Origin: a phage
Strand: one strand, 5' to 3'
DNA length: 64,000 nucleotides
Assembly: GCA_018027755.1 (NCBI GenBank)
Contig: GCA_018027755.1_4098.1
Made by a program: the position numbers and the translations under genes. A model generated the notes under the pieces. The model worked only from the letters and a program-made list of their open reading frames with translations, did not search any database and was not told the origin of the DNA. Shown one piece after another: positions 39,890-52,904 of the stretch (its first letter is position 1; every line of letters begins with the position of its first letter).

Positions 39890-39925
39890 AATTCCCTCCT
39901 TTATTCATTATACTATATTTAACCA
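39890..39925 (-). promoter_or_regulatory. conserved -35-less promoter-like element plus RBS
   Basis: Minus-strand reading ttaaatatagtataatgaataaaggagggaatt then ATG; repeated before most family members. Confidence 0.5.
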
Positions 39926-39934
39926 AAAAGAAAA

Positions 39935-39953
39935 GCCAGTACAGAGTACTGGC
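39935..39953 (-). terminator. junction terminator hairpin
   Basis: gccagtactctgtactggc followed by a T-run. Confidence 0.6.
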
Positions 39954-39959
39954 ATTGTA

Positions 39960-41093
39960 TTAAGGTTTATTTTTATAATTAATTTCTACATAGTTACGTT
40001 GTGTTCCAGTATATCCTGGAACATTCCCTATATTTCCATTACCTGCACCAAACAGACGTTCTCCGACTGCAAAATATGTCCCATAGAAACAACCATCAAA
40101 CACAGGAACATCATTATAATTTGATATGTAATTATCCATTGAATCCATTCTAGTGTATGCAGTCAGAGTTACATTTGTACCTATACCATATGCACCATAA
40201 GGGTTAGTACCAGCAACATAATACCCAGTGGGTGTACATATTACTGGTGAATTTGCCCCTGATCTCGTGTGGATAAATCTAAATGTACCTTCAGGTACTG
40301 GTGCTTCTTTACTGAATAATGTTGTAGCTACTACTGGGTAATCAATACCATAACTATTACCACTCAACCACGTTTTACCATCACTATCTTTGAATAATGA
40401 ACAGGATTGTGTGCATCCGAACAGATTCAAATTGGTTACATTTGGAAATTTACTAATTTGTGTATATACCAGAACTGTGGTTGCGGCAGCACTACCAAGT
40501 TGTCCACGACCATTATCACCCGCACTGTACATGTACCCATCGGTCTTTAATATTATACTAGCGTTTCCTAAAATATCAAAATCAACAACATCCGTTTGTG
40601 TTAATGTAGCTATAGGATAACGAAAATTCACTGCCTCACCAGTACCAAATTGACAATTGGTGTTTACCCCACATCCATATAAGTTGCCGTTTTGCATTAA
40701 TATAAACAAACCTGTTGTCATTTTAATTTTCTTAATATTAAGAATATCTATATCTTGGAATATGTGTGTTACATTTACAAATGTGGTTGAGTTAACAGTA
40801 CTTGAACCATAATAAGAACCGTTCCCGCTACCAAAGAATTCATCGCCTTTTCTGTACATTGCACATAGACTGCCACCCCATACATCATCAACTCCAGTGT
40901 CAATTTGAATAACTGAAGTAACACTAGTTGTTGCACCAGTGCCAAGTTCACCACCTGAATTGAATCCAAAACCATACAAATCTCCACTTTCGGTGAGCAC
41001 CAAAACACTGTTATTGGTTGTGCATGAAATCTTTTTGATATTATTAGATGGTCTTTTATTTCCGTACTTAACCATTCTTGCAAAAGGTAACAT
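39960..41093 (-). CDS. RCC1-like beta-propeller repeat protein, MLPF-family paralog (377 aa)
   Basis: MLPFARMVKYGN; RCC1-type motifs YGCGVNTNCQFGTGEA and YSAGDNGRGQLGSAA. Confidence 0.8.
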   Translation of the reverse strand: MLPFARMVKYGNKRPSNNIKKISCTTNNSVLVLTESGDLYGFGFNSGGELGTGATTSVTSVIQIDTGVDDVWGGSLCAMYRKGDEFFGSGNGSYYGSSTVNSTTFVNVTHIFQDIDILNIKKIKMTTGLFILMQNGNLYGCGVNTNCQFGTGEAVNFRYPIATLTQTDVVDFDILGNASIILKTDGYMYSAGDNGRGQLGSAAATTVLVYTQISKFPNVTNLNLFGCTQSCSLFKDSDGKTWLSGNSYGIDYPVVATTLFSKEAPVPEGTFRFIHTRSGANSPVICTPTGYYVAGTNPYGAYGIGTNVTLTAYTRMDSMDNYISNYNDVPVFDGCFYGTYFAVGERLFGAGNGNIGNVPGYTGTQRNYVEINYKNKP

Positions 41094-41140
41094 GATTTCT
41101 CTCCTTTATCCATTATACTATATTTAATACAAATAAGAAA

Positions 41141-41159
41141 GCCAGTACAGAGTACTGGC
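41141..41159 (-). terminator. junction terminator hairpin
   Basis: gccagtactctgtactggc. Confidence 0.6.
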
Positions 41160-41166
41160 TTTTACA

Positions 41167-50435: not shown

Positions 50436-50481
50436 ATTTCCCTCCTTTATTCATTATACTATATTTAATACAAAAAGAAAT

Positions 50482-50500
50482 GCCAGTATCAAGTACTGGC
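50482..50500 (-). terminator. junction terminator hairpin
   Basis: gccagtacttgatactggc. Confidence 0.6.
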
Positions 50501-50507
50501 ATAGTAT

Positions 50508-51635
50508 TCAAAAAGGTAAATCAATTTGCTTAGTAATAATAGTATCTAACGGTATTGAACACAATGAGAAATTCTTTCCACCCGTATTTTTAGGATTATA
50601 TCCATTCATCCATACATTATTACCTTCGTAAAATGTATTCCAGTATAAAGACCCACTATATCGTGTATTCGAATTGAACGATGTAAAATTGAATTCTTGA
50701 AATGCTGTAAAATATGGAAGGGAACTTGAACTACTTCCCGTAAATGGGGTATGCCCAGTTGCTATTAGTTTGTTTGTATCTGCATTAATTAAAAATACAA
50801 CACTAGTCGAATAGTCCAACGAATCAGGATGATATATATTACTCATATCACCTATAGTAAAACCAACATCAAAAACTTTACTATGTGCACCACTACCAGC
50901 AAAAGTAGTTCCAGTTGCATATATTTTATTATCAGATGTTATCATTACAAAACCAACACCAGAAACAAAACTGCATTTTATATCATAAGATATATCATCA
51001 AACAACGGAACAAATGTGGTTGCATCACCCGATGTTGCTTTAACTTGAAAGCTGTTATTTGAACCTGAACCATATACAGTTCCATCGTTTTTAATCTTAA
51101 ACAATGTATCGCCAAGGTAACCGCCAAATATATTATCCACATTAGTGTCAAGTACAGTCCACGCTGAAACATAATTTTTATGTCCTAAACCTAATGCACC
51201 ACTTCGATTCCATCCTCTTCCATAAAGTGTTCCGTCTTTCATTAATATAAATGCTGTATAACCACATAACATTTTTTTAATTTGGGTAACATCTATACCA
51301 GTGAAATACACAGCCCAGTCAGTATATCCTTGTTGGAAAGTATTAGAATTCGTGAATGCATATGTTGAACCTGAACCATATATTTTATCACCTTTAATAA
51401 CAACGGAAAACGATCCTAACCATAAGTCATCAACTTCAGTTGTGATTTGTTGAACTGCTCCTAACGATACAAACTTTGTACTTAAACCCGCATTATAGTT
51501 TGAATCTTCACCGTGTGCATATACAGTGCCATCTTGCATTAGAAACATTTCAAGAGTGTAACTAACAACACTTTTCTTTATATTATTAACTTCGATTATA
51601 TTCCCATAATCAAACATTCTAACAAAAGGTAACAT
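50508..51635 (-). CDS. MLPF-family paralog (375 aa), Gly/Ser/Thr/Asn/Tyr-rich
   Basis: MLPFVRMFDYGN; weaker RCC1-like motifs. Confidence 0.7.
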   Translation of the reverse strand: MLPFVRMFDYGNIIEVNNIKKSVVSYTLEMFLMQDGTVYAHGEDSNYNAGLSTKFVSLGAVQQITTEVDDLWLGSFSVVIKGDKIYGSGSTYAFTNSNTFQQGYTDWAVYFTGIDVTQIKKMLCGYTAFILMKDGTLYGRGWNRSGALGLGHKNYVSAWTVLDTNVDNIFGGYLGDTLFKIKNDGTVYGSGSNNSFQVKATSGDATTFVPLFDDISYDIKCSFVSGVGFVMITSDNKIYATGTTFAGSGAHSKVFDVGFTIGDMSNIYHPDSLDYSTSVVFLINADTNKLIATGHTPFTGSSSSSLPYFTAFQEFNFTSFNSNTRYSGSLYWNTFYEGNNVWMNGYNPKNTGGKNFSLCSIPLDTIITKQIDLPF

Positions 51636-51707
51636 AATTCCCTCCTTTATTCATTATACTTTATTTAATACAAATAAGAATTCCTGTATCGAGTACTGGC
51701 ATTCAAT

Positions 51708-52856
51708 TTATTGTAAAAAGGACATATCTACTTCTGTATAACTAAGAATGTTTTGACCAGCAATTCCACCCATTACTACTATTGCATACCCACAATAATA
51801 TAATTTCCCAGTGTCCGTAAGTATAAGTGAACCAGAAGGTGTTCTTACCAAATTACACGAACTATTAAAAGAAGTATACGAAGGAGTATAGGAGTACTGA
51901 TTAATATTATTACCAACACCTAATTGACCACCCCTATTCGAACCAGATGCATAAAGTACTTCATCTGCTTTGACAATATGTGATGCCATGTTAGCAACAC
52001 ATGCATATACACCATATACCCCTGTACTCAATAATGTAGGAGTCTTGTATTGAATATCAGTACTAGTAGATGTTCCACCTGTGCCAAATTCATTACCATA
52101 TTGTGCTCCGTACTGCTTCCCACATGCGTACAAATTATTATCCGATTTGATAAAAAATGTACTCTGATAACTTACATCAAAATCTATAACATCCGAAGAA
52201 ATCATCGTTACCCCAGTAATCGAAGTTTGATTACCAGTACCCAACTGGTAGTAATAGTTAAAACCACAACCCCATAAAGTATTATCTTCTCGCAAATAAA
52301 TGTTACCAACAGCCTTTTTAACAGATGTTATAGTACTGACCTTCTTGAATGTATTAAATGAATCAATGTTAGTACCATCTCCAAAGGAGGATATGTTCGA
52401 TGCGTTATTAGCACCACAACAATATAATGTCCCATCCTTCAGTACTAAATTTACCTTCATATCATTAAAACTGCTCATGTACTCAATATCAGATACACTA
52501 ATACCACCTGATGTTATCCACGTAGTACAGTCCGTCCATAACGTCTTCCTATCAGTTACCCCAGTAAATGCCTTCGTGTTACCAGTGATAAACACTTTAC
52601 CAGTACCCTTTTCTTCATACAATTGACAATCACTACTGTTATCTTCCAATAAAACCCTCTGTACATTCTCTGCACAAAGAATAAATTTACTCGAAGCTAC
52701 TCCTGTACCAGTACCCCAATTCGTCGCAGAAGATGCATACAACTTGTGTGTTAGTGTATCATGCAAATACATAGAACCACTAGAATATATTTTAAAACGC
52801 CCTTCTTTCTCAGGTATAATATTCCCATAATCAAACATTCTAACAAAAGGTAACAT
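51708..52856 (-). CDS. MLPF-family paralog, Gly/Ser/Thr/Asn/Tyr-rich
   Basis: Start at MLPFVRMFDYGN (52856); first gene of the minus-strand array. Confidence 0.7.
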   Translation of the reverse strand: MLPFVRMFDYGNIIPEKEGRFKIYSSGSMYLHDTLTHKLYASSATNWGTGTGVASSKFILCAENVQRVLLEDNSSDCQLYEEKGTGKVFITGNTKAFTGVTDRKTLWTDCTTWITSGGISVSDIEYMSSFNDMKVNLVLKDGTLYCCGANNASNISSFGDGTNIDSFNTFKKVSTITSVKKAVGNIYLREDNTLWGCGFNYYYQLGTGNQTSITGVTMISSDVIDFDVSYQSTFFIKSDNNLYACGKQYGAQYGNEFGTGGTSTSTDIQYKTPTLLSTGVYGVYACVANMASHIVKADEVLYASGSNRGGQLGVGNNINQYSYTPSYTSFNSSCNLVRTPSGSLILTDTGKLYYCGYAIVVMGGIAGQNILSYTEVDMSFLQ

Positions 52857-52904
52857 ATTTCCTCCTTTATTCATTATATCATATTTACCCCATAAACAAA
52901 ACCC

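Follow-up and report, generated by a model that had tools for sequence, protein, structure and literature searches.

Candidate T4-type late promoters between the genes of a hypervariable RCC1-like array in an Asteriusvirus jumbo coliphage

A hypervariable gene array and its conserved junctions

This study concerns a tandem array of paralogous genes, and the short conserved element that recurs at the junctions between them, in a stretch of 64,000 nucleotides (nt) of phage DNA (contig GCA_018027755.1_4098.1; hereafter, the window). Bases 1-25000 of the window were ~98% identical to the Asteriusvirus jumbo coliphages CRJP21, G17, Sharanji, phAPEC6, and PBECO4 over 95-97% of the length. By this sequence identity, the source of the window is an Asteriusvirus, that is, a 121Q/phAPEC6-like jumbo coliphage. 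The array region, in contrast, matched the same phages only in patches, with a coverage of at most 50% and an identity of ~91%. Thus, with at most 50% coverage as compared to 97% for the flank, the array represents a hypervariable part of an otherwise conserved genome.

The array comprises the following segment (aa, amino acids):

38103..52874, minus strand: tandem paralog array with 12 full-length paralogs (245-449 aa) and two N-terminal fragments

Its open reading frames (ORFs) run from 52856 down to 38103. A previous interpretation based on the letters of the window (hereafter, the sequence-only reading) had placed the array at 39890-52895. The array is real, but both the array and its motif extend to 38.1 kilobases (kb), and two of its genes, starting at 49224 and 43546, lack the junction. 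Eight of the 10 paralogs scanned matched the Pfam models RCC1, RCC1_2, or WD40_RLD; no Pfam match was obtained for the glycine-rich paralog at 44802-45539 and the one at 38540-39889. The paralogs at 51708-52856 and 50508-51635, which lay outside the scan, are taken to be RCC1 proteins, giving ten RCC1-repeat members. The sole paralog scanned against PHROG matched PHROG 4219. Eight of the 11 RCC1-like proteins of phAPEC6 were detected in virions by mass spectrometry, and the phAPEC6 proteins gp077 and gp274c were likewise detected (PMC7247149). The window genes that oppose the polarity of the early genes are exactly these virion genes.

The paralogs have diverged to a median identity of 22% at the amino-acid and 41% at the nucleotide level. 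The 46 nt upstream of the ATG, however, are 87% identical among the copies, and identity over the first 60 coding nt is 70%. The contrast between 87% for the junction and 22% for the proteins indicates that selection or concerted evolution maintains the junction. Of the gene boundaries, ten have a length of 70-79 nt, and a further one, before the last fragment, measures 92 nt. The junctions share a common plan: a stop codon, a hairpin (GCCAGTAC-loop-GTACTGGC), a T-run, the stretch (GTAT)TAAATA-TAG-TATAAT-G-AATAAAGGAGG, 5-6 nt, and the ATG. The conserved element, TAAATA-N3-TATAAT-G-AATAAAGGAGG, is longer than described previously. Its second hexamer is termed box 2 below. The individual junctions are as follows (SD, Shine-Dalgarno sequence):

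52854..52887, minus strand: first array promoter, no hairpin upstream; TAAATA 52882-52887, TGA, TATAAT 52873-52878 (TGATATAAT), AGGAGG 52861-52866, ATG 52854-52856
51633..51700, minus strand: cassette; imperfect hairpin 51682-51700 (3' arm TACAGGA), T-run, TAAATA 51662-51667, AAG, TATAAT 51653-51658, SD 51640-51646, ATG 51633-51635
50433..50500, minus strand: cassette; hairpin 50482-50500, TAAATA 50462-50467, TAG, TATAAT 50453-50458, SD 50440-50446, ATG 50433-50435
48041..48108, minus strand: cassette; hairpin 48089-48108, GGGGTAAATA 48069-48074, TAG, TATAAT 48060-48065, SD 48048-48053, ATG 48041-48043
46800..46868, minus strand: cassette; hairpin 46849-46868, TAAATA 46828-46833, TAG, TATAAT 46819-46824, SD 46807-46812, ATG 46800-46802
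45537..45605, minus strand: cassette; hairpin 45587-45605, TAAATA 45566-45571, TAT, TATAAT 45557-45562, SD 45544-45550, ATG 45537-45539
44728..44795, minus strand: cassette; hairpin 44776-44795, TAAATA 44756-44761, TAG, TATAAT 44747-44752, SD 44735-44740, ATG 44728-44730
42355..42422, minus strand: cassette; hairpin 42404-42422, TAAATA 42384-42389, TAG, TATAAT 42375-42380, SD 42363-42369, ATG 42355-42357
41091..41160, minus strand: cassette; hairpin 41141-41160, TAAATA 41121-41126, TAG, TATAAT 41112-41117, SD 41099-41105, ATG 41091-41093
39887..39953, minus strand: cassette; hairpin 39935-39953, GGTTAAATA 39916-39921, TAG, TATAAT 39907-39912, SD 39894-39900, ATG 39887-39889
38462..38534, minus strand: complete cassette before a 36-codon gene fragment; hairpin 38515-38534, TAAATA 38491-38496, TATAAT 38482-38487, ATG 38462-38464
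38259..38326, minus strand: degenerate cassette before a 52-codon fragment; hairpin 38308-38326, CTAAATA 38290-38295, box 2 lost (TAACGA), ATG 38259-38261
43546..43555 and 49224-49233, minus strand: junctions without cassette; 8-nt gap with an SD sequence alone

The sequence AAATATAGTATAATG was found in nine exact copies and three copies with one or two mismatches, all of them on the minus strand between 38481 and 52886; within two mismatches, 1.15 copies are expected by chance in the whole window. Each copy resides in a 70-79 nt gap between paralogs or upstream of the first array gene. GTATAATG occurs 29 times in the window compared with 5.4 expected. TAAATA is present in all 12 window cassettes and perfect TATAAT in 11 of them. 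TAAATA ends 25-26 nt and TATAAT 16-17 nt before the ATG, and GGAGG begins 8 nt after TATAAT. The leader is therefore very short, as the sequence-only reading had claimed, and even shorter than the ~12 nt given there. The degenerate cassette occurs in identical form in G17 and phAPEC6. The truncated array genes (36 and 52 codons, 38103-38464, minus strand) have thus both retained their cassettes, the second one with CTAAATA and without box 2. At the two 8-nt gaps, the presence of an SD sequence alone indicates that the respective gene pairs are co-transcribed.

A G+C-rich hairpin followed by a T-run, as is typical of intrinsic terminators, was found at eleven minus-strand positions. The consensus terminator scan listed ten of them, corresponding to nine of the ten intergenic junctions and the degenerate cassette (38306-38328); the hairpin at 51682-51700 is absent from this list and derives from a pattern match only. 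In the whole window, 23 terminator-like sites were detected compared with 7.4 in shuffled sequences, and the junction hairpins are annotated as terminators (ARNold) in the G17 record. The hairpin was the sole stable structure in the fold. No leader RNA structure beyond it was predicted by folding (z = 0.36 for the 52-nt leader), and an Rfam scan of the window returned one tRNA only and nothing in the junction leaders. On these grounds, an RNA-level function of the leader was rejected.

A canonical −35 is missing from the junctions. At 16-18 nt from the junction TATAAT, the best match to TTGACA comprised two to three of six positions, and the best TTGACA-like stretch was the T-run of the terminator itself. 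In line with this, a sigma-70 consensus scan revealed no −35 with at least four of six matches paired with a junction TATAAT. The proposal of a −35-less element at the array junctions is thereby borne out, and given the hairpin and T-run directly upstream and the high identity of the block among strongly diverged genes, it is very probable that the element is a promoter.

Two known types of −35-less promoter were compared with the junctions. Extended −10 sigma-70 promoters (TGnTATAAT) function without a −35 and, like the junctions, may contain a perfect TATAAT. The TG, however, is absent from 11 of the 12 window copies, which carry TAG, TAT, AAG, or no TATAAT, and the sole TGnTATAAT of the array, at 52873-52881, belongs to the first array promoter (TGATATAAT). 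The true TGnTATAAT elements of the phage are paired with G(G/A)GACA and reside upstream of replication genes. An extended −10 assignment of the junctions was therefore rejected. T4 middle promoters combine a sigma-70-type −10 with a MotA box centred at −30, 11-13 base pairs (bp) from the −10, and are activated with AsiA; they share with the junctions a sigma-70-type −10 without a canonical −35. No MotA box was found at 11-13 bp from the junction TATAAT. The MotA-like TTTGTATTA agrees with the MotA box in seven of nine positions, but it lies only 7 bp from TATAAT, which is ~5 bp too close, and it is not conserved, being replaced by GGGG or GGTT in several copies. A T4 middle promoter was thus rejected on the sequence and spacing of TTTGTATTA; homologs of MotA and AsiA were not searched for.

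The conserved 5' ends of the array genes have a counterpart at the protein level. All array members begin with MLPF(A/V/G)R(M/L), and the N-terminal peptide MLPFARMVKYGNI is kept over the first ~60 nt of the array genes (e.g., those starting at 52856, 46802, and 39889, minus strand) despite the 22% overall identity. Both members without a Pfam match carry a MLPFARMVKYGNI-type N-terminus as well. In relatives, the peptide reads MIPFARM (phages of Erwinia, Salmonella, and Klebsiella), MLPF (Yersinia), or MFPIPI (Xanthomonas). Because array proteins are found in the virion, the shared peptide may be a virion-targeting or processing signal. The array also contains a recent duplicate pair, the genes starting at 46802 and 42357, with 89% amino-acid identity. 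The conserved block of ~120 nt formed by the cassette and the 5' coding end could be a substrate for unequal recombination.

Conservation and genomic distribution of the two boxes

To determine which box is constant, the DNA upstream of RCC1 genes was compared between the window and the phages G17, phAPEC6, 121Q, CMSTMSU, Munch, fENko-Kae01, Hallingskeid, XaC1, and fHe-Yen9-04, covering six host genera. For fHe-Yen9-04, the site upstream of the first array gene was used, and the variants from CMSTMSU, a low-quality, unverified record, carry little weight. Across ~65 promoter sites in the nine phages and the window, TAAATA was invariant. Box 2, on the other hand, read TATAAT at 51 sites, TATATT at three, TATAAC at four, and TATAAA at two, and was absent from five. 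The main variants are:

Salmonella phage Munch: TAAATAT(A/G)nTATAAT; leaders unrelated to those of the window
Klebsiella phage fENko-Kae01: TAAATATAATATAAT at three junctions, TAAATATATGTCTGC at one
Erwinia phage Hallingskeid: TAAATAC(T/G)(G/T)TATATT
Yersinia phage fHe-Yen9-04: GGGTAAATATGATTACAAG
Xanthomonas phage XaC1: CTAAATATAAATTTAAT
121Q, G17, and CMSTMSU: box 2 reads TATAAC or TATAAA at some junctions

Box 2 is missing in the Yersinia phage, the Xanthomonas phage, and at one junction of the Klebsiella phage. For a sigma-70-type −10, the A at −11 and the T at −7 are indispensable; the latter is lost in the TATAAC and TATAAA copies. Neither are the G's flanking TATAAT retained in the relatives. 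The context of the first array promoter, GGGTAAATATGAT, recurs in Munch and fHe-Yen9-04, and Hallingskeid has GGGTAAATACGTT. A scan of IMG/VR with fixed flanks and free boxes yielded two contigs only, too few for unbiased statistics on variation. From the aligned sites, the essential box appears to be TAAATA rather than GTATAATG. The sequence-only reading had regarded the GTATAATG core, shared with the TTGACA promoters, as the key feature; this view is not supported, since relatives vary or lose TATAAT and its G's and keep TAAATA constant.

Word counts on the complete genome of phAPEC6 (352,598 bp) also single out TAAATA. With 230 copies, it is the rarest hexamer composed of A and T only, the next rarest occurring 490 times and most others 600-900 times. 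ATAAATA was counted 54 times compared with 297 expected, making it the rarest 7-mer of its composition, whereas TATAAT is not avoided (767 copies, 902 expected). Within the window, TAAATA occurs 31 times instead of ~154, and 13 of the 18 minus-strand copies belong to cassette promoters, namely, the 12 array cassettes and the promoter of a gp077-like gene. Of all ATAAATA copies in phAPEC6, 61% are located 10-60 nt upstream of an SD sequence and start codon; the share was 6-15% among twelve other words rich in A and T. The genes behind ATAAATA include those for the major head, portal, sheath, and baseplate proteins and further structural proteins, and the word often comes directly after a terminator. 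Avoidance combined with placement at gene starts is expected of a short, self-sufficient signal that is selected against elsewhere.

The spacing to the start codon is also compatible with TAAATA as the promoter box. In this late class, the distance from the end of the box to the ATG ranges from 16 to 67 nt (median ~37), and the 25-26 nt of the array fall within this range. In the promoters of the TTGACA class (n = 31), the end of TATAAT is at least 26 nt away from the ATG; the 16-17 nt of the array are shorter than all of these, and a start 7 nt after TATAAT would coincide with the SD sequence. All 12 copies of AAATATAGTATAAT in phAPEC6 lie in the RCC1 array. The extended 15-mer was therefore rejected as a genome-wide promoter class; one looser copy lies before gp274c. 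The composite TAAATA-N3-TATAAT precedes the non-RCC1 virion genes gp077 and gp274c of phAPEC6, and an N4 version precedes another virion gene outside the paralog family, gp231c. In the window, the corresponding site is located upstream of the ortholog of gp077, a phAPEC6 virion protein (PMC7247149 Table 1):

8823..8863, minus strand: composite element of the gp077 ortholog (non-RCC1); ATAAATA 8857-8863, CGT, TATAAT 8848-8853, SD 8831-8836, ATG 8823-8825

Late transcription and competing explanations

We consider it probable that the array junctions represent T4-type late promoters with the core TAAATA, embedded in insulated cassettes. According to this model, the intrinsic terminator would end the upstream transcript at each junction, and a T4-type late promoter, for which TAAATA is essential and no −35 is required, would follow ~10 nt past the T-run. 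TAAATA would occupy positions −11 to −6 of the TATAAATA box of T4, a phage in which late transcription is coupled to replication and begins 6-7 nt after the box. We infer that transcription starts 5-7 nt downstream of TAAATA, inside TATAAT, giving a leader of ~20 nt with a strong AGGAGG. The promoter would be read by the host RNA polymerase core equipped with a phage late sigma of the gp55 family, and the array would be switched on late in infection, which matches the presence of RCC1 proteins in the virion. TATAAT would then constitute the A/T-rich melting/initiation region of the late promoter, and its identity with the −10 of early promoters would be largely incidental. Each RCC1 gene or coupled gene pair would form an insulated unit.

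The late promoters of T4 consist of an 8-bp box and an A/T-rich stretch downstream, have no −35, and serve late genes on either strand (PMC2988020). The junctions resemble them in their single A/T box, placed roughly a helical turn before the predicted start, in the missing conserved −35, and in the A/T-rich segment directly downstream (TAGTATAATGAATAAA, 14 of 16 positions A/T). The use of either strand for virion genes and the occurrence of a gp55-family sigma in the genus, phAPEC6 gp237c, are further common features. The array box (ATTAAATA or GGTAAATA) matches TATAAATA in six of eight positions. It keeps the TAAATA core only; at −12, the array carries T or G instead of the A of T4. Among T4 late promoters, A at −13 occurs as a known variant, and the Aeromonas phage Aeh1 has a variant at −13/−12 (PMC2988020). 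Unlike in T4, a further conserved box, TATAAT, follows after 3 nt in most array copies. The gp55 homolog (279 aa) is also larger than T4 gp55 (185 aa), with an extra N-terminal half.

A late class with the sequence ATAAATA has been predicted by computer for the related, RaK2-like phages CBB and GAP32 (PMC5259590). These promoters belong to the same clade, share the core and the A/T-rich DNA after it, and are located upstream of structural genes (PMC5259590). The array form differs in being a sub-consensus variant in a fixed cassette of terminator, promoter, and ribosome site. The papers on the Asteriusviruses phAPEC6, Sharanji, and fEgEco12 contained no promoter analysis, and the RNA-seq paper on PA5oct reported only TTGAC/TATAATA promoters. 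In the literature searched, the late class is thus known for CBB and GAP32 by prediction, and its apparent RCC1-array form in Asteriusvirus is not described.

The sequence-only reading had suggested that a phage factor recognizes the junctions and had proposed the following gene as the candidate:

13623..14588, plus strand: RpoD-family sigma, 321 aa; region 2, region 3, and first half of region 4

A phage sigma is indeed the likely reader, but this protein does not seem to be the right one. Its matches were to the Pfam models for regions 2, 3, and 4 (first half only), to NCBIfam RpoD_Cterm (6e-25), and to RpoD chains in the Protein Data Bank (PDB). Aligned to RpoD, however, it carries SSSIYMTVY in place of TWWIRQAIT and RYMSV in place of VHMIE. 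These positions include what we take to be residues W433, W434, Q437, T440, H455, and E458 of Escherichia coli sigma-70, which read the −10 and the extended −10. With the tryptophan pair and other −10-reading residues lost, the protein is a poor candidate for recognizing the same TATAAT as the host sigma. The situation also differs in this respect from the cascade of SPO1 (gp28, then gp33/34), the kind of model implied in the sequence-only reading, which otherwise offers a parallel in having a phage sigma-70-family protein in the early region and several promoter classes. The SPO1 sigmas recognize −35 and −10 motifs of their own.

In phAPEC6, gp237c is annotated as a sigma factor for late transcription. 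It matched PHROG 12791 (3e-154) and PHROG 234 (8e-18), the same two families that were matched by T4 gp55 (3e-69 and 5e-7, respectively). Pairwise BLASTP of gp237c and T4 gp55 gave 24% identity over 139 aa (E = 2e-4), and neither a phmmer search of gp237c against PDB nor Pfam yielded a match. The relationship is thus remote but reciprocal. The gp237c gene is preceded by a G(G/A)GACA-TGnTATAAT promoter, which fits a cascade. On these comparisons, a gp55-family late sigma of the gp237c type fits better as the reader than the sigma at 13623-14588.

Several points weigh against T4-type late promoters at the junctions. The late-sigma gene is encoded outside the window, and its presence in this phage is presumed because 25 kb of the window are 98% identical to relatives. 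The authors of the CBB study detected no homologs of the T4 co-activator gp33 or the sliding clamp gp45 (PMC5259590), and no search for them was made here. A transcriptome or promoter study of Asteriusvirus was not found in the literature. The base before TAAATA is T or G in every array copy and never A, although the enriched word elsewhere is ATAAATA; outside the array, [CGT]TAAATA is mildly enriched upstream of genes (18% vs. ~10%). The junction copies within one phage are not independent, gene conversion likely being behind them. Finally, TATAAT is exact in phages of Escherichia, Salmonella, and Klebsiella although N3 and the leader differ, which suggests that box 2 has some function of its own.

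This last point bears on two further explanations. It is possible, although we rate it as doubtful, that TAAATA-N3-TATAAT is a true two-box promoter, with both boxes read by the enlarged gp55-like sigma or with sigma-70 and then the late sigma using overlapping boxes. If so, it would be an architecture not described for T4-type late transcription, and with sequential holoenzymes the virion RCC1 proteins would be made over an extended period. Similarly, TAAATA might serve the late sigma and TATAAT, or CTGGCA-N17-TATAGT, a weak earlier promoter for host sigma-70, so that expression would span more than one phase. We regard such a dual or overlapping promoter as unlikely. Both boxes are conserved across the three host genera while spacer and leader vary, the first array promoter is a true extended −10, and CTGGCA-17-TATAGT (9/12 matches, using the 3' arm of the hairpin) is present at three junctions. 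Moreover, ~30% of the ATAAATA sites elsewhere have TATA(A/T)(A/T) within 12 nt downstream (eight of them at 3-5 nt), compared with two of 20 controls. Sigma-70 matches of 9/12, however, are as frequent in shuffled sequence (81 vs. 80), the extended −10 is confined to a single window copy, box 2 is dispensable in several natural copies, and the start-site geometry is poor for TATAAT.

The model of the sequence-only reading, in which TATAAT (GTATAATG) is a −35-less −10 read by the RpoD-family sigma, a factor that would do without a −35 and shift polymerase to the array, away from the early TTGACA promoters, is improbable in our view. It would account for the perfect TATAAT in 11 of 12 window cassettes and its retention in the Salmonella and Klebsiella relatives. 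The sigma gene sits in an early-type region with TTGACA promoters, and because its product's match to the Pfam model for region 4 covers just the first half, reading of the −35 may be altered or lost. Yet the protein is devoid of the residues with which sigma-70 reads TATAAT. In addition, natural junctions with TATAAC, TATAAA, or no box 2 retain TAAATA and an intact gene, initiation at the usual distance from TATAAT would hit the SD sequence itself, and the 15-mer does not form a class elsewhere in the 352-kb genome. We consider it highly improbable that the element is not a promoter at all and that its conservation reflects gene conversion or an RNA-level role (translation enhancer or processing site), the array then being expressed through read-through transcription that begins at the 52.9-kb promoter. 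The copies within one phage are nearly identical, as under concerted evolution, two gene pairs are plainly co-transcribed, and the A/U-rich stretch upstream of the SD sequence could aid ribosome binding. But the strong hairpin and T-run before each block would render read-through inefficient, and the leader has neither structure beyond the terminator nor an Rfam match. TAAATA, moreover, is conserved in phages with unrelated leaders and is a word avoided genome-wide and tied to gene starts.

Promoter classes of the phage and significance

The late promoters would be one of four classes. Canonical promoters of the TTGACA type ending in TATAATG, as described by the sequence-only reading, do exist in the window, with the difference that the spacer between the hexamers is 16 nt and not 17. 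These and two further promoters of the window are located as follows:

1195, 16971, 21279, and 31625: TTGACA-N16-TATAATG promoters
57760: TTGACT promoter variant
25794..25864, plus strand: two other promoter classes adjoining, GGGACA-N15-TGATATAAT at 25794-25821, then TATAAATA at 25856-25863; upstream of the ortholog of virion protein gp037c

The phAPEC6 genome contains 34 copies of TTGACA-N16-18-TATAAT, a class CTTGCA-N17-TATAAT, represented in the window by a CTTGCA-N17-TATAATG family at 59-63 kb, and the (N)ATAAATA class upstream of structural genes. The remaining class, G(G/A)GACA-N14-15-TGnTATAAT, precedes the genes for ssb, DNA polymerase, gyrase B, and the annotated late sigma and probably marks a middle class. 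The −35 motif TGAAACG reported for CBB gave only four weak matches in phAPEC6 and is not a promoter class there; the G(G/A)GACA class probably stands in its place.

The CTTGCA-type promoters form a repeated unit, AAAGTACTTGCAA-N17-TATAATGTTTTACAT, with a short, G+C-rich hairpin directly behind it (e.g., GAGAGCGGGAACACTTCCC); seven plus-strand copies lie at 59040-62760 of the window. In phAPEC6, 18 CTTG(C/T)A-N17-TATAAT promoters reside upstream of genes at 325-343 kb; 12 of them end in GTATAATG with a hairpin, each ahead of a small ORF. Transcripts from this unit would carry the hairpin at their 5' ends. A divergent control region (52890-52960) adjoins the first array promoter back to back and has a plus-strand TTGACA-N17-TACTAT, which carries AGTACT in its spacer and heads ~20 small ORFs (~60 aa each, 52959-57121).

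The palindrome AGTACT is the commonest hexamer in the window (243 copies, ~22 expected) and ranks first of 4096 in the phAPEC6 genome, with 918 copies. It also leads all hexamers at the RCC1-array loci of the relatives from Erwinia (71 vs. 5) and Salmonella (43 vs. 3.8) and is dense at the locus from Xanthomonas (30 in 5.7 kb). The palindrome is enriched in all three frames of coding DNA and more strongly between genes. It is present in the array terminator stems (GCCAGTACT), in several spacers of the TTGACA class (cAGTACTGTATAAT), and directly next to the −35 of CTTGCA promoters (AAGTACTTGCAA). By this distribution, AGTACT looks like a DNA-level signal; a full-text literature search gave no paper tying it to jumbo phages.

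For annotation, our results call for caution, as even a perfect TATAAT occurs commonly in an A/T-rich phage, and the informative signal here is the strongly avoided word adjoining it. The 70-nt cassette of terminator, promoter, and ribosome site is a compact, naturally insulated expression unit and would lend itself to testing a gp55-type sigma in a phage seemingly devoid of gp33 and gp45. For Asteriusvirus, the analysis provides a promoter map of four classes, that is, early TTGACA, CTTGCA, G(G/A)GACA-TGnTATAAT, and late (A)TAAATA, in which the RCC1 array would be assigned to the late class.

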